From contig DATEOJ010000205.1 of the NCBI GenBank assembly GCA_035274235.1, positions 1 to 46,675 on the forward strand: a stretch of DNA of 46,675 nucleotides, in the 5' to 3' direction. The notes below the pieces were generated by a model. The model did no database searches. It saw only the letters and a program-made list of their open reading frames with translations, and was not told the DNA's origin. Positions within the stretch are counted from its first letter, which is position 1. The number at the start of each line of letters is the position of its first letter. The DNA is from Pyrinomonadaceae bacterium. GTDB lineage: Bacteria > Acidobacteriota > Blastocatellia > Pyrinomonadales > Pyrinomonadaceae. Shown piece after piece: positions 4,958-46,131 of the stretch. Position numbers and translations under genes: made by a program.

Positions 4958-5068
4958 AAAGGCGTTTTGAACGCGGATCAGGCGGATCGAGCGAATCTGA
5001 AAAATATCTTCACGTGCTTCACCGCCCAAATCCGCTCGATCCGCCCCATCCGCGTTCAAAACGCCTTT
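4958..5068. repeat. long imperfect inverted repeat (about 37-nt arms, about 36-nt spacer) occupying most of the intergenic spacer
   Basis: Left arm 4958-4994 is AAAGGCGTTTTGAACGCGGATCAGGCGGATCGAGCGA. The reverse complement of 5031-5068 differs at about 4 positions. The arms contain 9-nt periodic (A/G)NGCGGATC units. Confidence 0.7.
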
Positions 5069-9348: not shown

Positions 9349-9413
9349 CTTTGCGAGCTTAGCGGGCTCTGCGTGAGAATAGATTTCACGCAGAGCCCGC
9401 CAAGCTCGCAAAG
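9349..9413. repeat. 28-bp-arm near-perfect inverted repeat (27/28) with a 9-nt loop
   Basis: CTTTGCGAGCTTAGCGGGCTCTGCGTGA (9349-9376), loop GAATAGATT, then TCACGCAGAGCCCGCCAAGCTCGCAAAG (9386-9413). It lies upstream of the ABC operon start. A related solo half (TTCACGCAAAGTCGCAAAGCCGCAAAG) sits at about 13073-13099. Confidence 0.75.
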
Positions 9414-13319: not shown

Positions 13320-13413
13320 CATTACAGAATTAGTAATTACCTCATTAGTAATTACACGCAGTAATCTTCCTCTCCATGTAATTACTAATGCGGTAATTAC
13401 TAATTTCGTAATG
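13320..13413. repeat. 37-nt-arm inverted repeat (34/37) built from GTAATTAC units, with a 20-nt spacer
   Basis: Left arm CATTACAGAATTAGTAATTACCTCATTAGTAATTACA (13320-13356). The reverse complement of 13377-13413 differs at 3 positions. The palindromic octamer GTAATTAC occurs four times. The repeat lies between the dedA stop (13421) and the tRNA-Pro promoter. Confidence 0.8.
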
Positions 13414-13420
13414 AGAAGTA

Positions 13421-14131
13421 CTACGAGACGGCCTTGTCTTCTTCGACAACGTTCTTCGGCTCGTGACTCTTGCCAAATCGATGTTTGAGAAACTCGATGA
13501 TCGGCGGCAGAAGAGATAAGAAGACAACGACGATGACGACCTTCTCGATGTGGTCTTCGAGCTTGATCCCGAGGGCCGACTCTATCACGCCGCCGAGGAA
13601 GTAGCCGCCGAGTACCATGCTCGAGATCCAAAGAGCTCCGCCGATTACGCTGAACGTCAGGAACTTTGCGTAAGGCATCTCGGCCGCACCGACTACTAGA
13701 GGTGCGAACGTGCGGACGATCGGAACGAAGCGAGCGAGAACGACAGTCTTGACGCCGTACTTTTCAAAGAAGTGCTTAGCCTTCTCAACCCGGCTTGGCT
13801 TGAAGAGAAACGAGCTTTCGCGATTGAAGAGCGTCTTGCCCATCATTCGTCCGGTCCAATAACCGGTGCTGTCACCGATGACCGAGCCGAGGAAAAACGC
13901 TAACAGGACCAGTCCGATCTGGAGTTTGCCGGCTGCGGCAAACAGACCGGCCACGACGAGCAGTGAATCGCCCGGCAGGAAGAAACCGACCGCCAGACCG
14001 GTCTCCGCGAAGACAATGAACCAGAGTCCGAGATAAACCCACGACCCCAACAACGCGAGAAGCCAGTCGATCAAGAATTTGGGATTCAGGTAGTCCTTGA
14101 TCTGATACAAAAAGTCGAGAATAGATTCCAT
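13421..14131 (-). CDS. DedA family membrane protein
   Basis: ORF trimmed to ATG 14131, because the longer ORF starts at TTG inside the repeat. The VFAETGLAVGFFLPGDSLLVVAG motif is typical of DedA/SNARE-associated proteins. Confidence 0.8.
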   Translation of the reverse strand: MESILDFLYQIKDYLNPKFLIDWLLALLGSWVYLGLWFIVFAETGLAVGFFLPGDSLLVVAGLFAAAGKLQIGLVLLAFFLGSVIGDSTGYWTGRMMGKTLFNRESSFLFKPSRVEKAKHFFEKYGVKTVVLARFVPIVRTFAPLVVGAAEMPYAKFLTFSVIGGALWISSMVLGGYFLGGVIESALGIKLEDHIEKVVIVVVFLSLLPPIIEFLKHRFGKSHEPKNVVEEDKAVS

Positions 14132-14136
14132 ACAAG

Positions 14137-14661
14137 AAAAGTAAAAAGTAAAAAGTAGAAAGTAAATTGGCAAATGCGACCAGCCTTTCCTACAAGACTG
14201 CCTACTTATTCTTCGACGTAACGATCCTCTTCGCTACGATTTTTGCAATCTCGCTTGATTCCTGCACCATTTGGAGGATGCCCGTCTTAGCCGCCGGTTT
14301 CAACGGTTCCGTCGCCAGGATCAATCGGAGCCAGAAATTGGATTCTCGCGCCTCCTTTAACGAGATTGCGTTCTTGTGAATAAAGTCGGCCCGACTTTGA
14401 CCCGCGACCGCTTCCTCCAGATTCGCTCCGATGGATGTGCCAGCGTCAAGGAGTTGGTTGATCACACTCCTGCTGACGTTGGTATGCTTTTCAAGGTATT
14501 TGCAGAGCTTAACGATCCTTACGGCGAAGGCGAATGCTCGCTCGGTAATTGGAACAAGCTTCGACGACGCGTGCTTACGAGTATTGGTGGGAGCCATACT
14601 CTCTTCCTCCTGCTGTTTCCTTTTTAAGTAATTTACTTTTTACTTTCTACTTTTTACTTTT
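14137..14661 (-). mobile_element. IVS-like cassette: four-helix-bundle ORF bounded by 32-bp terminal inverted repeats (30/32)
   Basis: IR-L 14137-14168 is AAAAGTAAAAAGTAAAAAGTAGAAAGTAAATT. The reverse complement of IR-R 14630-14661 is AAAAGTAAAAAGTAGAAAGTAAAAAGTAAATT. The unit fills the whole pcm-dedA spacer. Mobility is inferred, not shown. Confidence 0.45.
14202..14597 (-). CDS. four-helix-bundle protein (TIGR02436 / PF05635, 23S rRNA intervening-sequence protein family, Avd-like fold)
   Basis: 131 aa with a strong SD AGGAGGAAG before ATG 14597. The family signature QLLDAGTSIGANLEEAVAGQSRADFIHKNAISLKEARESNFWLRLI is present. Confidence 0.85.
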   Translation of the reverse strand: MAPTNTRKHASSKLVPITERAFAFAVRIVKLCKYLEKHTNVSRSVINQLLDAGTSIGANLEEAVAGQSRADFIHKNAISLKEARESNFWLRLILATEPLKPAAKTGILQMVQESSEIAKIVAKRIVTSKNK

Positions 14662-15343
14662 GGCTCTTTCCATCCCATCCATGGGTGCCGATCAGCGGTA
14701 CGAACGCACACGGACCGAAATTCTCCGTTGCATATCCTTTTTCACCGCGCGTTACGCGAATGAGCACCTGCGACTTTTGCTCCGGACCGACCGGGATCAC
14801 CATTCGTCCGCCGACCTCGAGTTGCTCGACCAGCGGTTGCGGGATGTCGGGGCCACCCGCTGCGACGAGGATCGCGTCGAACGGTGCGTAAACTTCCCAA
14901 CCGTTTGTCCCGTCGTCGCAGCGATATGAAATGTTTCGATATCCGAGTTGAAGCAGTTTCTGCTTGGCCTCCGCATGAAGGGAGGCGAGACGCTCGACCG
15001 CGAAGACTTTTCTCGCAACGGTCGCGAGTACGGCAGTTTGATATCCCGACCCGGATCCGATCTCGAGAATACGTTCACGACCCTTGAGCTCGAGCAGCTC
15101 CGTCATACGCGCGACGATGAACGGTTGCGATATCGTCTGGCCGCCGGAGATCGGCAGGGCGTTGTCTTTATAAGCCTGCGATCTGAGGGCGTCCGGTACA
15201 AAGGCATGACGCGGAACGCGGTTCATCGCATCGAGGACGCGTTCATCGGCGATCTTGTAATGCTTGCTGAGATGCTCGACCATCCGCGCACGCGGTATCT
15301 CGAAGCCATCTGAGCCATTAGGTTTTATCGCAAGACCGTTCAT
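14654..15343 (-). CDS. pcm: protein-L-isoaspartate O-methyltransferase
   Basis: SAM-binding motif ILEIGSGSGYQTAVLA and the conserved ISQPFIVARM. The start was trimmed out of the repeat to ATG 15343. ATG 15283 (MVEHL...) is an alternative start. Confidence 0.85.
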   Translation of the reverse strand: MNGLAIKPNGSDGFEIPRARMVEHLSKHYKIADERVLDAMNRVPRHAFVPDALRSQAYKDNALPISGGQTISQPFIVARMTELLELKGRERILEIGSGSGYQTAVLATVARKVFAVERLASLHAEAKQKLLQLGYRNISYRCDDGTNGWEVYAPFDAILVAAGGPDIPQPLVEQLEVGGRMVIPVGPEQKSQVLIRVTRGEKGYATENFGPCAFVPLIGTHGWDGKSQK

Positions 15344-15345
15344 TT

Positions 15346-15442
15346 GATTTTGGATTTTGGATTTTCGATTTTGGATTGTCGGAATCACATGTGCGCTATC
15401 GCATCGACGGAATCCAAAATCCAAAATCTAAAATCCAAAATC
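15346..15442. repeat. heptad-periodic (GATTTTG)n inverted repeat filling the surE-pcm spacer
   Basis: Left core 15346-15377 is GATTTTGGATTTTGGATTTTCGATTTTGGATT. The reverse complement of 15411-15442 matches at 30/32. About 33 nt separate the two 32-nt cores, with a short GTCG/CGAC pairing inside that interval. The right arm overlaps the surE stop, and the left arm ends 3 nt from pcm ATG 15343. Confidence 0.8.
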
Positions 15443-16187
15443 ACGCTTCCCAGTTCTTCATTGTATCGAGAGCCGCGTGGTTCGTCAGGTCGCTTCGCAT
15501 CGGTGTGACCGAGACATAACCTTCATCGACGGCTTCGAAGTCAGTTCCGCCTTCGGCACGGAAGCCTTCGCGGACTTCGCCGATCCAGTAGTAGGGCTTT
15601 CCGCGCGGGTCGATGTGTTCGCTGATCACAGGACGAGCTTCCTTAAAACCCTGCTTGGTTACGCGGATCCCGTTTGGAACGCCTTTTGGAATATTTACAT
15701 TGAGAAGCGTCCACGCGGGGATGCCTTCGGCCAGCGCTTTTCGTGTGACGTCGATCGCGACGCGTGCCGATTCGGTGAAGTCATGACTTCGGGATGCGAC
15801 GAGACTAAACGCGAGACCGGGGACGCCAAGGATCGTCGCTTCCATTGCTCCGGCGACAGTGCCGGAGTAGGTCGCATCGTCACCGAGATTCGCACCGTGG
15901 TTGATTCCAGACACGCATATGTCGGGAAGCGTGCCTTCGCCTAGGATGCGGTTGATCGCAAAAGTGACGCAGTCGGTCGGAGTGCCATCGACCGTCCAGT
16001 GACGATCGTCGATCTGACGAATTCGGAGTGGGCGTCCAAGCGTCAAACTGTGCGACGCTCCGCTCATCTCCGACTCCGGTGCGACGACATACACTTCTCC
16101 GATCTGCTTCATCGCCGCCTCGAGGGCCTCGATACCTTCGGAGTGTATGCCGTCGTCGTTTGTGATCAGGATGCGTGGTCGATCCAT
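15441..16187 (-). CDS. surE: 5'/3'-nucleotidase SurE
   Basis: N-terminal ILITNDDGIHSEGI signature. The start was trimmed out of the repeat-derived N-terminus to ATG 16187. This is the conserved surE-pcm gene pair. Confidence 0.9.
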   Translation of the reverse strand: MDRPRILITNDDGIHSEGIEALEAAMKQIGEVYVVAPESEMSGASHSLTLGRPLRIRQIDDRHWTVDGTPTDCVTFAINRILGEGTLPDICVSGINHGANLGDDATYSGTVAGAMEATILGVPGLAFSLVASRSHDFTESARVAIDVTRKALAEGIPAWTLLNVNIPKGVPNGIRVTKQGFKEARPVISEHIDPRGKPYYWIGEVREGFRAEGGTDFEAVDEGYVSVTPMRSDLTNHAALDTMKNWEA

Positions 16188-16204
16188 AGTGAAACAGTTT
16201 AAGA

Positions 16205-16313
16205 GTGAAAAAGTGAAAAGGTGAAAAGGTGAAAGAGTGAAAGGGAAAAAAGTAAAAGGTGGAAAGGTTAAGCAAAGCTTTTTCACCTTTCCACCTTTTC
16301 ACCTTTTCACTTT
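16205..16313. repeat. octamer-periodic (GTGAAAAG)n / (CACCTTTT)n inverted repeat filling the rpsU-surE spacer
   Basis: Left units lie at 16205-16253. A central perfect 15-bp stem AAAAGGTGGAAAGGT (16254-16268) / ACCTTTCCACCTTTT (16285-16299) is followed by right units to 16313, ending 2 nt before the rpsU stop codon. Confidence 0.75.
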
Positions 16314-20557: not shown

Positions 20558-22306
20558 CTAGCTGCGCAGACTGATCGCACTCGTCATCAGAAGGCTGACA
20601 AGGTCGATGTCGCCGCCCCGGTCGACATAAAACTCATCGTCTCCCTGAAGACCATCGTTGTAGCCCATCTCATAGCCTTCGCTAAAGTATCGCCGACAAT
20701 CGCCGATGCTCGACGAGTAAGGATCGTAGACCGCCTGGTCGTACACATAAGGATCCGAGTAATACTCGTCGCCCCATCCACGCCGGCGGGCTGCCTCGCC
20801 TTCGAGGAGACCCTGATAGTATCCGGTGCTCAAAGAGCGTTGGATCAACTCGGCACCGAGTCCGCCCGAGTAGAGCGTGACCATGTCGTTGTACGGGAAC
20901 GTTGGATATCCAACGTAATCGTACGGGGCACCGTAGTTCGAGTACTGGTCATAACCGTAGTACGCGGCCGGTTCGTAGTACGTGTAGCTCGGTGTATTAC
21001 CAAACGTGTAATACGGTTCCTGATACCTATACTGCGGAATGTAGCCGTAGTAACCGTTGTCGTTATAAGACGTGTAACGCGGATACGGATCGTAATAGCC
21101 AACATTATCGCCATTGGAGAAGAACGCAGCTATCACGCTTCGGAAGAGAAGGCCCTTCCAGTCTAAGCCGCCGCCATACCCGTAATACGGCTGATCGTAA
21201 ACGTACGACCGATAGATCGGGAACGTGTCCGGATAGTAGTAGTCGTACGCCGTATACGCCGGCGTGTACACGTTGTAATAACCGAATCGATCGTAGTCCG
21301 AATAGTCATCGCCGAAATACACGTTCACGGTTCTGGAATCGTAGTAATACGTCTGACCGTTACCGTAGTAGTAAGGCTGAACGTTCGAGTAGTAATACGG
21401 CTGAACATTCGGGACGTAGTTCCAGTCGCGGGTTCGATAGACGTCGCCGAACGATTGCTGGTTCCGAAGGCCCGTATAGTAGCCGAGCTCCTCGCGTTCA
21501 AAGGCCCTGCTATCGAGGCGCTGCTGCTTGTGTTCGAACTTCCGCGAATCGCGATCAAAGCGCTGAGCTCTTACCGCGTCGCCGTACTGTCTCGCGTCAT
21601 TGGTAAAGTCTCGTCGAACCGGACCCATATTGGCATCCGGCTGAACACGTACGCGTTGTTGTCGGTCCGACTGATTCCAGTTACGCGGCTGACGCTCGAC
21701 CTGACGGATATCGCGCTGCTGCATCTGCCGGCGTGCATTCATTTGCTGCTCGCGTTGGTTATTCTGCCATTGCGGCATTTGCTGACGTCGCGCGTTCTGC
21801 TGTTGTTGACGCTGATCCATCTGCTGGCGTCGAGCATTTACCTGCTGCTGGCGCAGGATATTCTGCCCTCGGTCCATCTGCTGACGTCGCGCGTTCTGCT
21901 GTTGCTGGCGTTGGTTGTTCTGCCACTGGTCCATCTGCTGACGTCGCGCGTTTTGCTGCTGGCGCTCGTTGATCTGCCGCTGCTGCATCTGCTGTTGACG
22001 CTGCACGTGAACCTGTTGCTGACGCTGAACCTGCTGTTGTTGCCGCTGCACCTGCATCTGCTGGCGCTGCGCTCCACCACCACCGCCACGATCCTGGCGC
22101 TGCTGAGGTTGCGGTTGCTGTCTGACGTGTCCTTGACCACCACCGCCACCGCCCGTCGGGCGCTGTTGCTGTGCTGGAGGACCGCCACCGCGACCGCCTC
22201 CGCCACCACCGCCTTTGCCCTTACCCTGGGCAAACGAAGACCCGGCGAACAACATCGCAAGAGCGAAAACCGAAATAGCTTTAATAAGAAAAAATTGAGA
22301 TCGCAT
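20558..22306 (-). CDS. secreted low-complexity protein: poly-Gly, Gln/Arg tandem repeats, then a Tyr-rich C-terminal half
   Basis: 582 aa with SD GGGGAGG before ATG 22306 and a signal peptide (ISVFALAMLFAGSSFAQ). Runs of G6-7 are followed by five NARRQQM(D/P)QWQNNQRQQQQ-like units, then a long region rich in YY/YYY (VQPYYYSNVQPYYYGNGQTYYY...). Confidence 0.75.
   Translation of the reverse strand: MRSQFFLIKAISVFALAMLFAGSSFAQGKGKGGGGGGGRGGGPPAQQQRPTGGGGGGQGHVRQQPQPQQRQDRGGGGGAQRQQMQVQRQQQQVQRQQQVHVQRQQQMQQRQINERQQQNARRQQMDQWQNNQRQQQQNARRQQMDRGQNILRQQQVNARRQQMDQRQQQQNARRQQMPQWQNNQREQQMNARRQMQQRDIRQVERQPRNWNQSDRQQRVRVQPDANMGPVRRDFTNDARQYGDAVRAQRFDRDSRKFEHKQQRLDSRAFEREELGYYTGLRNQQSFGDVYRTRDWNYVPNVQPYYYSNVQPYYYGNGQTYYYDSRTVNVYFGDDYSDYDRFGYYNVYTPAYTAYDYYYPDTFPIYRSYVYDQPYYGYGGGLDWKGLLFRSVIAAFFSNGDNVGYYDPYPRYTSYNDNGYYGYIPQYRYQEPYYTFGNTPSYTYYEPAAYYGYDQYSNYGAPYDYVGYPTFPYNDMVTLYSGGLGAELIQRSLSTGYYQGLLEGEAARRRGWGDEYYSDPYVYDQAVYDPYSSSIGDCRRYFSEGYEMGYNDGLQGDDEFYVDRGGDIDLVSLLMTSAISLRS
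21716..21952 (-). repeat. in-frame tandem coding repeats (about 57 nt / 19 aa, 4-5 copies) inside 20558..22306
   Basis: The DNA motif CCATCTGCTGACGTCGCGCGTT(C/T)TGCTG recurs. The protein level shows NARRQQMDQWQNNQRQQQQ / NARRQQMDRGQNILRQQQV / NARRQQMDQRQQQQ / NARRQQMPQWQNNQREQQM / NARRQMQQRD. Confidence 0.75.
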
Positions 22307-23534: not shown

Positions 23535-24317
23535 ATGGCAACAGCAAAAAAATCCGCGGCGAAGAAGACCGCGGCGAAGAAACCGGCGGCTAAAAAACCC
23601 GCAGCAAAAAAAGCAGCTGCAAAGAAACCCGCAGCAAAAAAAGTAGCTGCTAAGAAACCGGCAGCAAAGAAGGCGGCGGCAAAGAAACCAGCTGCGAAGA
23701 AACCGGCTGCAAAGAAAGCGTCGGCGAAGAAACCGGTCGCAAAGAAAGCAGCGGCAAAGAAGCCAGCAGCAAAGAAGCCGGCGGCAAAAAAGCCGGCGGC
23801 TAAGAAGGCGACTGCAAAGAAAGCCACGGCGAAAAAGCCCGCGGCGAAAAAGACAGTTGCAAAGAAGCCGGCAGCGAAGAAAACGTCTGCTAAGGCATCG
23901 GTGAAGAAACCGGCGGCGAAGAAAGCAACGGCCGTAAAAGCGAAGACGGCACCGAAGGCCACTGCAAAGAAAGCGCCGGCGAAAAAGACGACACCTGTCG
24001 CTGCAAAGAAGAAGACCACCTCGCCAAAGTCGGCGGCAAAGAAAAAGACTACCGTCGTGAAGACGACGTCCGCTCCAAAGGCGAAGGCTCCCGCTCGACG
24101 TAAGCCGGCAGCTAAAACGATCGTAAGTAAAGCGGTCGAAACGATCACTGAGGTCGCGCAGGGCGCTGCGGCAGGTGCAGCCGTCGGAGCTCTCCACGGC
24201 GTGGCGACGACAGTTGAAGCGATCATCGCTCCGTCAACTCCGGAAGCAGAAACGACAGGCGAGCCTGAAGTGGCATCGTCGGAAACAAGCGAAGAAACAG
24301 AAACGGCGACCAATTAG
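23535..24317 (+). CDS. histone H1-like Lys/Ala-repeat protein with a distinct Ala/Gly/Val-rich and acidic C-terminus
   Basis: 260 aa with SD GGAGGA. About 170 aa of (A)AKKPAAKK repeats are followed by [31 protein letters not shown] and an acidic tail [18 protein letters not shown]. Confidence 0.75.
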
Positions 24318-32867: not shown

Positions 32868-32952
32868 AGAAGTAGCTCCTTTTCGATTGAATTGATCAGA
32901 CTGTGCGCGAAATATGACACACTTTCGGGAAGGCGACAAGGCGCGGGCGTTC

Positions 32953-33048
32953 GTTGATCGTGGTTCGTTGTTCGTTGTTCGTGGGGCGGTGGTTTATTGT
33001 TTGTGGTTCGGTCCACCAACGATCAACGAACGACGAACTACGATCAAC
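32953..33048. repeat. heptad-periodic (GTTCGTT)n inverted repeat in the spacer before the TMEM175 gene
   Basis: Left arm 32953-32984 is GTTGATCGTGGTTCGTTGTTCGTTGTTCGTGG. The reverse complement of 33013-33048 is GTTGATCGTAGTTCGTCGTTCGTTGATCGTTGGTGG (about 28/32). Confidence 0.7.
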
Positions 33049-33072
33049 TAACCCCCTGCTATAATCCCACCC

Positions 33073-39162: not shown

Positions 39163-39171
39163 ACGGTAGAC

Positions 39172-39239
39172 GAGAGACAAGAGACAAGAGACAGGAACCG
39201 CATCGAGGGGTTTCTCTCTTGTCTCTTGTCTCTTGTCTC
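39172..39239. repeat. heptad-periodic (GAGACAA)n inverted repeat between convergent genes
   Basis: A perfect 20-bp stem pairs 39174-39193 (GAGACAAGAGACAAGAGACA) with 39220-39239 (TGTCTCTTGTCTCTTGTCTC), with a 26-nt loop. Confidence 0.8.
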
Positions 39240-39250
39240 CCGTCCCCTCT

Positions 39251-45654: not shown

Positions 45655-46014
45655 TCTAAACCTCCTCTGCGGGGGTGAGGCGGTTTCAACTTCGGCAGTA
45701 CAACTCCGCCAAAAGCTGCGACCGGTCTAGTTGTTGGGTGAACGCGGGCATTCTATCAGGTAAACGTGGGAAGTCAATTTAATTCTTTAAACAAGAACAA
45801 CCGAGTTTTGCATGCCGTTGCGTACACGCCGAGATCTCGTATGCCTTTGCGTCGACACGGGTCGGCACTCGGCGACTTCACGAGTCAGATATCTCGCTTG
45901 CGCTTGTGACGCTTCTCTGCGAACGAATTTGCACGCGATCGCTCGCGCTGCGGATCGGCGTAACAGCCGGCAGCATTTAGAGAGCCTCGGGGCGGAACCG
46001 TTAGTTCCGGCGGA

Positions 46015-46064
46015 CGACAAACTTTAGTTTGTCGCTTCCGGGAGCGAACAAACTAAAGTTTGTT
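46015..46064. repeat. two adjacent perfect palindromes sharing the core ACAAACT-NN-AGTTTGT
   Basis: CGACAAACT-TT-AGTTTGTCG (46015-46034) and AACAAACT-AA-AGTTTGTT (46047-46064). Each is preceded by TTCCGG(C/G). Confidence 0.7.
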
Positions 46065-46074
46065 TTCCGAACGT

Positions 46075-46103
46075 AAAAAGCCCGCGATCGCTCGCGGGCT
46101 TTT
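46075..46103 (-). terminator. Rho-independent terminator of the radical SAM gene
   Basis: The minus strand reads AAAAGCCCGCGA-GCGA-TCGCGGGCTTTTT, 29 nt after the stop at 46132. Confidence 0.75.
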
Positions 46104-46131
46104 CTACTGACTTCTGAATTCTGGCTTCTGA

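Follow-up and report, generated by a model that had tools for sequence, protein, structure and literature searches.

A 46,675-nt stretch of DNA from a Pyrinomonadaceae bacterium (Acidobacteriota; contig DATEOJ010000205.1 of assembly GCA_035274235.1; hereafter the window) carries, between the genes pcm and dedA, a 525-nt unit (14137-14661) in which the gene for a four-helix-bundle protein is enclosed by two inverted arms made of 7-nt repeats (heptads). The same boxing was found around most of the homologues sampled across several phyla, predominantly in the sense orientation of the host operon. On balance we favour the reading that the unit is a gene cassette of the intervening-sequence (IVS) type familiar from 23S rRNA, residing here in mRNA instead: an inherited gene with inverted arms, whose stem would be processed by RNase III and whose heptads would be recognised by the cassette's own protein.

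Anatomy of the pcm-dedA cassette

In gene orientation, the cassette opens with a 5' arm (14630..14661, minus strand) that holds about 4.3 AAAAGTA heptads and is rich in A on the sense strand, and closes with a 3' arm (14137..14168, minus strand) of TACTTTT heptads, which is complementary to the 5' arm and U-rich in the sense RNA. The two 32-nt arms are complementary at 30 of 32 positions (94%) and are separated by 461 nt. Tandem Repeats Finder resolved both into 4.3 copies of a period-7 unit (AAAAGTA and TTTACTT) with 91% matches, in agreement with the initial annotation, which had described inverted arms of heptads. The gene between them (14202..14597, minus strand, 131 codons) had been assigned there to the PF05635/TIGR02436 family and credited with a strong ribosome-binding site. 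Both points were borne out by the profile matches of its 131-aa product (PF05635, 57.8 bits against a cut-off of 33.8; TIGR02436, 69.4 bits against a cut-off of 24) and by the Shine-Dalgarno sequence AGGAGGAAG (14603..14611, minus strand), which is read directly in the sequence, sits in the loop 18 nt past the 5' arm and ends 5 nt ahead of the ATG. The initial annotation had listed it as the only ORF between the arms, and a family-profile search of the whole window found no second member of the family. Three antisense open reading frames (ORFs) of 66-83 aa on the plus strand overlap the cassette gene and are presumed to be mere shadows of it.

The cassette fills the junction from the pcm stop to the dedA start exactly. 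The upstream host gene, pcm (14654..15343, minus strand), encodes a protein-L-isoaspartate O-methyltransferase (PF01135), and its stop codon (14654-14656) is supplied by the first heptad of the 5' arm. The 3' arm ends 5 nt short of the ATG (14131) of the downstream host gene, dedA (13421..14131, minus strand), which encodes a DedA/VTT-domain membrane protein (PF09335). The spacer between the two host genes measures 522 nt (14132-14653), and pcm, the cassette gene and dedA all lie on the minus strand, so that the abutment, spacer length and operon orientation stand as first described. In the predicted minimum-energy fold of the sense RNA, a check that the initial annotation had called for, the arms pair over about 31 bp into a stem enclosing the entire ORF (z = -4.8). 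The flank inverted-repeat score of the window locus was 26; shuffled flanks of homologous loci reached a maximum of 8-13, and the 99th percentile of control ORFs was 11.

No sigma-70-like promoter was found inside the cassette in a promoter scan, and a terminator scan detected no intrinsic terminator at the arms, whose stem is A-U rich and encloses 461 nt, unlike a short G+C-rich stem followed by a U-run. The AAAAGTA unit, with its single G and no G-tracts, has no potential to form G-quadruplexes. The cassette does not lie in rRNA, where IVSs occupy helix 9, 25 or 45 of the 23S molecule: an Rfam scan of the window matched only a tRNA, and the neighbours are pcm and dedA.

The nearest solved structure to the window protein is 2RLD, of a Bacteroides thetaiotaomicron protein (E = 4.8e-19 when a single sequence was the query and 2e-37 with the family profile), and 2GSC (XCC0516) matched the profile of the window's subfamily weakly (E = 0.05). 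The window protein belongs to the 2RLD-like subfamily; XCC0516, which has been likened to the S23p protein of Coxiella (PMC4990558), belongs to a separate one. Both 2RLD and 2GSC were deposited with five chains, and XCC0516 has been described as a pentamer (PMC4990558); by analogy, the window protein probably assembles as a homopentamer. It is basic (pI 10.1, net charge +10), as is the family (median pI 9.35). PADLOC and PHROGs gave zero matches, and anti-phage defence or a phage origin was rejected on these grounds.

Distribution, placement and history of boxed genes

We fetched 80 loci with homologues of the window protein (43-77% identity), covering Acidobacteriota, Cyanobacteria, Chloroflexota, Planctomycetota, Verrucomicrobiota, Desulfuromonadota, Actinomycetota and others, at least 8 phyla in all. 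Inverted repeats were sought in the 150-nt flanks of each gene, a score of >= 13 being counted as positive, and 74 genes were testable. Flanking inverted repeats were present at 60 of the 74 homologues (81%), compared with 1 of 323 control ORFs (0.3%) in the same loci (Mann-Whitney p = 6e-30); the family-wide survey of flanks that the initial annotation had suggested thus came out in its favour. The arms matched themselves at 0.82 with a lag of 7 and 0.84 with a lag of 14, and at 0.23-0.44 with every other lag up to 13. The array upstream of the gene was purine-rich on the sense strand in all cases, the median arm length was 4.4 heptads on the 5' side and 4.0 on the 3' side, and the median cassette measured 476 nt. 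A detector that demanded strict period-7 arrays caught just 15 of 82 cassettes, since single arms mix variant heptads, and the inverted-repeat flank test was used in its place.

Two main classes of heptads were distinguished. AAAAGTA/AAAAGGC accompanies the window's protein clade, including Nostoc and Calothrix. The other, GAATTGA/GAATTTA, was found in Planctomycetota and Chloroflexota, in part of the Acidobacteriota, and in a Trichlorobacter isolate and a Clostridia genome bin. The class tracks protein similarity rather than host phylum: acidobacterial proteins with GAATTGA arms are closest to planctomycete and chloroflexal proteins, and the AAAAGTA-armed proteins of Nostoc and Calothrix are closest to acidobacterial ones. 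It follows that the gene moves or evolves together with its arms. This conservation of the heptad sequence, and its agreement with the protein phylogeny, had escaped the initial annotation. In two Nostocales loci, L020 (1956-2517 and 2900-3420) and L026 (1689-2912), at least two heptad-boxed cassettes, or arm arrays, stand in tandem. A separate property of the repeats concerns reading frames: since 7 and 3 have no common factor, arrays of AAAAGTA, GAATTGA, GAATTTA, GAATGAA and GACAGAT present a stop codon to each of the three frames within 21 nt, so that a 5' arm of this kind ends the translation of the upstream gene in any frame. Arrays of AAAAGGC and GGGAATC lack this property.

The placement of the cassettes relative to their hosts was equally regular. 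The upstream neighbour was co-directional in 53 of 56 loci (p = 2e-5 if a baseline of 72% co-direction is assumed) and the downstream neighbour in 47 of 59, and the upstream stop codon fell within or beside the 5' arm in 47 of 60. The downstream start mostly lay 0-13 nt past the 3' arm, a range in which the choice of start codons in the analysis is biased to short distances. Given the sense orientation, the abutment on stop and start codons and the lack of an internal promoter, the cassette appears to depend on read-through from the host operon. In the window, transcription would most likely come by read-through from the S21-surE-pcm-dedA operon, whose co-transcription we infer.

Four relatives (L081, L082, L003 and the partial contig L090) have these genes in the same order, S21-surE-pcm-cassette-dedA. 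Among the four orthologues, the proportion of synonymous differences (pS) was 0.64-0.98, with synonymous sites saturated, and that of nonsynonymous differences (pN) was 0.12-0.24; the protein is therefore under purifying selection. Pairwise identity was 0.81 in the 5' arm and 0.88 in the 3' arm, close to the 0.83 of second codon positions, which indicates that the arm sequence itself is constrained. Third codon positions stood at 0.38 and the non-coding stretches of the loop at 0.27-0.30.

Comparison of the pcm-dedA junction among relatives, another check that had been proposed, likewise came out positive, revealing empty sites, heptad remnants lacking the ORF and different cargo. In L091-L094, L099, L104, L105 and L149 the two host genes overlap or are separated by 2-28 nt, and the C-terminus of the window's Pcm is extended into the arm relative to these empty-site relatives. 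The closest relative without the gene is L083, which a rough dedA tree places as sister to the window's group. There (520-672), the dedA ATG is immediately preceded by five TACTTTT/CAGTTTT heptads and the pcm stop is followed by a stub of the 5' arm, the ORF having been lost. A new small hairpin of GGGATGA heptads is seen at the expected ORF position. The junction holds U-rich heptads only in L084, a small hairpin of a different heptad in L096, and about 950 nt of unrelated cargo with no heptads in L088 (2545-3500). The L088 cargo comprises a kinase-like ORF with a P-loop (GLPGAGKST) and small toxin-antitoxin-like ORFs. The patchy occupancy implies gain and loss, and the junction may be a hot spot for insertions in general. 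Nothing in the relatives compared pointed to recent movement of the cassette. The initial annotation had called the unit a mobile or formerly mobile element; recent mobility at this locus is contradicted by four orthologues with saturated synonymous sites. Judged from these comparisons, the window's copy is an ordinary, old, vertically inherited member of its kind and not a recently mobile one.

Long intergenic hairpins that enclose no ORF are also abundant in the window. Seven of them, with arms of 28-38 nt, lie at 15345-15443, 16188-16311, 13320-13413, 39163-39243, 32945-33056, 4958-5068 and 9349-9413; the five that were folded (all but the last two) gave z values of -5.6 to -10. Most are built of a 7- or 8-nt unit of their own (GATTTTG, GTGAAAAG, AGTAATT, AGACAAG, GTTCGTG). 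At least five follow a co-directional gene, and three span the distance from a stop codon to a few nucleotides from the next start. Nearly every spacer of the S21-surE-pcm-dedA operon carries such a hairpin, a point that the initial annotation had missed. At the syntenic surE-pcm site the unit is GATTTTG in the window (15346-15442), GATTTGG in L081 (3165-3245) and AGACGGT-like in L082 (2305-2335); a changed unit seems to pass to every copy in both arms, which looks like concerted evolution.

The frequency of long intergenic hairpins, at 1.5 per 10 kb in the window, where six ORF-less ones were counted besides the cassette, 0.93 in close relatives and 0.22 in other Acidobacteria, raises the question of whether heptad hairpins serve this lineage as general-purpose marks between cistrons, with the gene sitting in one loop by chance. 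The ORF-less heptads at the pcm-dedA junction of L083, L084 and L096 would fit such a coincidence. We consider it very improbable, and largely refuted, since boxing occurs in 81% of the family, including members in Planctomycetota, Cyanobacteria and Chloroflexota, versus 0.3% of neighbouring genes; moreover, the cassette heptads are conserved, whereas the heptad of the ORF-less surE-pcm hairpin changes between relatives.

The operon's translation signals bear on another reading. Shine-Dalgarno sequences are absent before dedA, pcm and surE (14132-14136, 15344-15345 and 16191-16203), whose starts lie 2-13 nt past a stem, and a strong AGGAGG stands before the cassette gene alone. The stem could thus serve translational coupling: ribosomes leaving pcm would open it, or re-initiate across its base, and translate dedA, so that the coupling found at empty junctions would be restored. 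Such a role agrees with the overlap or close spacing of pcm and dedA in relatives with empty sites, with arms that reach from the stop codon to 0-13 nt before the next start in most loci, and with the ORF-less hairpins that fill the S21-surE and surE-pcm junctions from stop to start in the same way. RNase III, however, normally cuts stems of about 30 bp, which would part the cistrons; the rRNA members of the family are wholly untranslated, and coupling leaves both period 7 and heptad conservation unexplained. We regard it as unlikely that coupling accounts for the stem.

Two further repeat features were noted elsewhere in the window. Long tandem repeats at 23544-23882 and 21810-21994, of period 15/30/45 (GCAAAGAAGCC-like, 11-21 copies) and period 57 (3.3 copies), are spanned by long ORFs and are probably repetitive low-complexity protein segments. 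At 46010-46105, the palindrome ACAAACTTTAGTTTGT occurs twice, about 30 nt apart, followed by a terminator-like G+C-rich hairpin with a T-run (46078-46105).

Likeness to intervening sequences and heptamer repeats

One of the closest known counterparts is the ORF-bearing IVS of 23S rRNA, as in Coxiella and Leptospira; an IVS is cut out of its host RNA by RNase III and the flanks are not religated. The Coxiella IVS is 428 nt long, has a 28-bp terminal stem around an S23p ORF, and carries 3-4 GACAGAT heptamers ahead of the ORF, in a copy number that varies among strains; RNase III cuts it in vitro at the first repeat, with the ends mapped (PMC4990558). The stem-plus-ORF layout that the initial annotation had likened to an IVS is therefore the same in both: an ORF of the same Pfam family, a similar size (428 versus 525 nt), a stem of about 28-32 bp enclosing this ORF, tandem heptamers 5' of the start codon, sense orientation in the host transcript and sporadic occurrence among relatives (PMC4990558). 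The differences lie in the host RNA, which in the window is a protein-coding operon and not rRNA, and in the state of the gene. The window gene has a strong ribosome-binding site in the loop and is under purifying selection, whereas the ORF in Coxiella is in decay and is parted from its ribosome-binding site by the cleavage. RNase III cleavage is known for the Coxiella IVS; the window stem is known from its sequence.

The cyanobacterial short tandemly repeated repetitive (STRR) sequences are heptamers too, and belong with the intergenic heptameric repeats considered here. In Xanthomonas, Rehm et al. (2015) described GGGAATC repeats at about 186 intergenic sites per genome, mostly of 4 units. 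They counted 70-75 convergent pairs per genome, transcribed and located between aligned ORFs, with the G-rich strand within 50 bp after stop codons and its complement just before the next starts (PMC4692102). The authors interpreted these heptamers as G-quadruplexes or regulatory sites, and their function is unexplained (PMC4692102). Other heptamer repeats are GGGGAYT in Nostoc (PMC4692102) and TAACTGA in Beggiatoaceae (PMC4679880). The window arms share the pattern of the paired Xanthomonas repeats: about four 7-mers per arm, between co-directional ORFs, purine-rich after the stop codon and complementary before the start. They differ in that AAAAGTA has no quadruplex capacity and in that the papers treat the repeats by themselves; neither PMC4692102 nor PMC4679880 mentions a tie between heptamer repeats and PF05635 genes.

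Such a tie is found in Xanthomonas itself. An XCC0516-like gene lies between accB and accC, co-oriented with them (L163, 2410-2860; L166, 2425-2845); GGGAATC heptads follow the accB stop and ATTCCCC heptads run up to the accC ATG, so that the heptamers flanking this four-helix-bundle gene are the published GGGAATC repeats. The ORF of X. arboricola L163 is cut down to 57 codons, which suggests that the gene is decaying there, as in Coxiella. The metagenome contig L170, from the same XCC0516-like subfamily, has GTAGAGY heptads upstream of the gene and the complement CTCTACR downstream.

The presence of the flanking Xanthomonas heptad at about 186 intergenic sites, mostly of 4 units (PMC4692102), is compatible with a further explanation, in which the arms are operator arrays for an RNA-binding regulator. 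The ring protein would wrap single-stranded heptads, roughly one per subunit, much as TRAP does with triplets, and control its own expression and possibly that of other heptad-bearing transcripts. The 4-5 heptads per arm would match the five chains of the solved homologues or their description as pentamers, the family is basic, and the heptad type follows the protein clade. In RNA, however, the two arms differ, one A-rich and the other U-rich, and a single specificity cannot cover both; the ORF-less hairpins of the window's lineage use heptads other than the cassette's; and the optimum of arm length fits about three turns of double-stranded RNA equally well. We give this explanation only a small chance.

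Membership in several other classes of element was examined and rejected. Avd, the accessory protein of diversity-generating retroelements (DGRs), is a basic pentamer that binds nucleic acid and reverse transcriptase. It has the same fold as the window protein and belongs to the same superfamily, and PF05635, the Avd family, is the commonest Pfam family in DGR loci (PMC10053308). The window gene, by contrast, stands alone in a housekeeping operon with no reverse transcriptase beside it: no reverse-transcriptase Pfam family occurs in the 4-kb flanks of the syntenic loci, where the neighbours are S21, surE, pcm and dedA, and no template/variable repeat pair was found in the 1-kb region searched (13900-14900). 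MITEs (miniature inverted-repeat transposable elements), repetitive extragenic palindromic (REP) sequences and the hairpin-forming REP doublets called REPINs are likewise short intergenic inverted-repeat structures able to form long hairpins. Membership in these families was rejected, as every hairpin of the window has its own heptad and no near-identical copies, transposase, REP-associated tyrosine transposase (RAYT) gene or target-site duplication were seen. Nor does the unit answer to a transposon or MITE with terminal inverted repeats: it holds no ORF other than the four-helix-bundle gene, direct repeats are absent at the borders of the arms, and the orthologues are saturated at synonymous sites. 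An integron cassette was rejected because attC is a single site downstream of the ORF, the arrays of integrons are direct and not inverted, and no integrase is found among the flanking genes.

Proposed mechanism and its implications

In the mechanism that we favour, the cassette gene, which has no detectable promoter, would be transcribed by read-through of the operon and translated from its own ribosome-binding site. The arms would pair in the transcript into a stem of about 31 bp that seals the cassette and brings the pcm stop beside the dedA start. By analogy with the homologous cassettes of 23S rRNA, the stem would be a substrate of RNase III, and cleavage by this enzyme is its most likely role; the cut would release the cassette as a stem-capped mRNA of its own, with the insertion thereby tolerated by the host transcript. 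The protein, which is basic and probably pentameric, would recognise its own heptads, about 4-5 per arm. We infer this recognition because the conservation of the heptads exceeds what pairing needs and follows the protein phylogeny.

Several observations weigh against this mechanism. Selection for an RNA helix should favour G-U over A-C mismatches, and the arm mismatches comprised 40 of the G-U type and 54 of the A-C type on the sense strand (p = 0.18), with no bias to G-U. In addition, pairing extends to only 87% of arm positions, and a variant heptad in one arm has no compensating change in register in the other. Selection on the RNA helix is therefore not demonstrated. The stem is rich in A-U pairs, and a plain RNase III stem would explain neither period 7 nor the conservation of the heptads. 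To our knowledge, binding data in the family are confined to Avd. The loci surveyed were picked by similarity to the window protein, and in the XCC0516-like subfamily both arms were found in just 2 of 5 distinct contexts, namely the accB-accC site of two Xanthomonas genomes and L170. L167, L169 and L172 have one-sided arrays, and the ORF of L167 is truncated.

The absence of a G-U wobble bias, together with heptad conservation beyond pairing needs that follows the protein phylogeny, would also be expected of an element that moves as DNA. The heptad arrays would then be terminal inverted repeats to which the four-helix-bundle protein or a host recombinase binds at the DNA level in insertion and excision, and the RNA stem would be a by-product. 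As double-stranded DNA, both arms are one site in inverted orientation; occupancy varies, close relatives having clean and empty junctions of 2-28 nt, and the protein and the arms are common to several phyla. Such an element is nevertheless quite unlikely. No catalytic motif is known in the four-helix-bundle protein, no transposase or recombinase lies nearby, no target-site duplication was seen at the arm ends, no near-identical copies were found, and vertical inheritance has lasted long enough for synonymous saturation; the 95% sense orientation and the exact abutment on stop and start codons point to constraints at the level of the transcript. Mobility of the DNA, translational coupling by the stem and operator arrays are not mutually exclusive.

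A broader idea, speculative and in our view rather unlikely, is that PF05635 pentamers are sequence-specific readers, and perhaps propagators, of intergenic heptamer repeats, which many bacterial genomes carry in excess. The autonomous copy would be the boxed gene, the ORF-less heptad hairpins and junction arrays would be its satellites or footprints, and the rRNA IVS would be this same element after landing in rRNA. If true, a single mechanism would account for the IVS elements, for heptamer repeats being over-represented and for what free-standing Avd-like proteins do.

The protein family, the rRNA IVS and the intergenic heptamer repeats were already known separately; what appears to be new is the link among them and an IVS-type cassette outside rRNA. 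The initial annotation had supposed that neither the element type nor the role of the protein had been elucidated, and we found no paper describing the element outside rRNA or making the link; in a limited literature search, which establishes this absence weakly, TIGR02436 was not mentioned and PF05635 appeared only in the DGR review.

Intervening sequences that bear an ORF have been on record from rRNA since about 1990, with their source and the purpose of the ORF unexplained. The cassettes described here tie together three separate puzzles: these ORF-bearing IVSs, the excess of intergenic 7-base repeats in Xanthomonas, Nostoc and Beggiatoaceae, and the thousands of free-standing Avd-like genes. 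A gene and its inverted heptad arms form one heritable, cross-phylum unit at the stop/start junctions of operons, in sense orientation, of which the rRNA insertions would be a special case. Spacers of this kind should accordingly be annotated as structured elements and not as simple intergenic DNA. The strength and phylogenetic breadth of the pattern make these long-standing questions testable.

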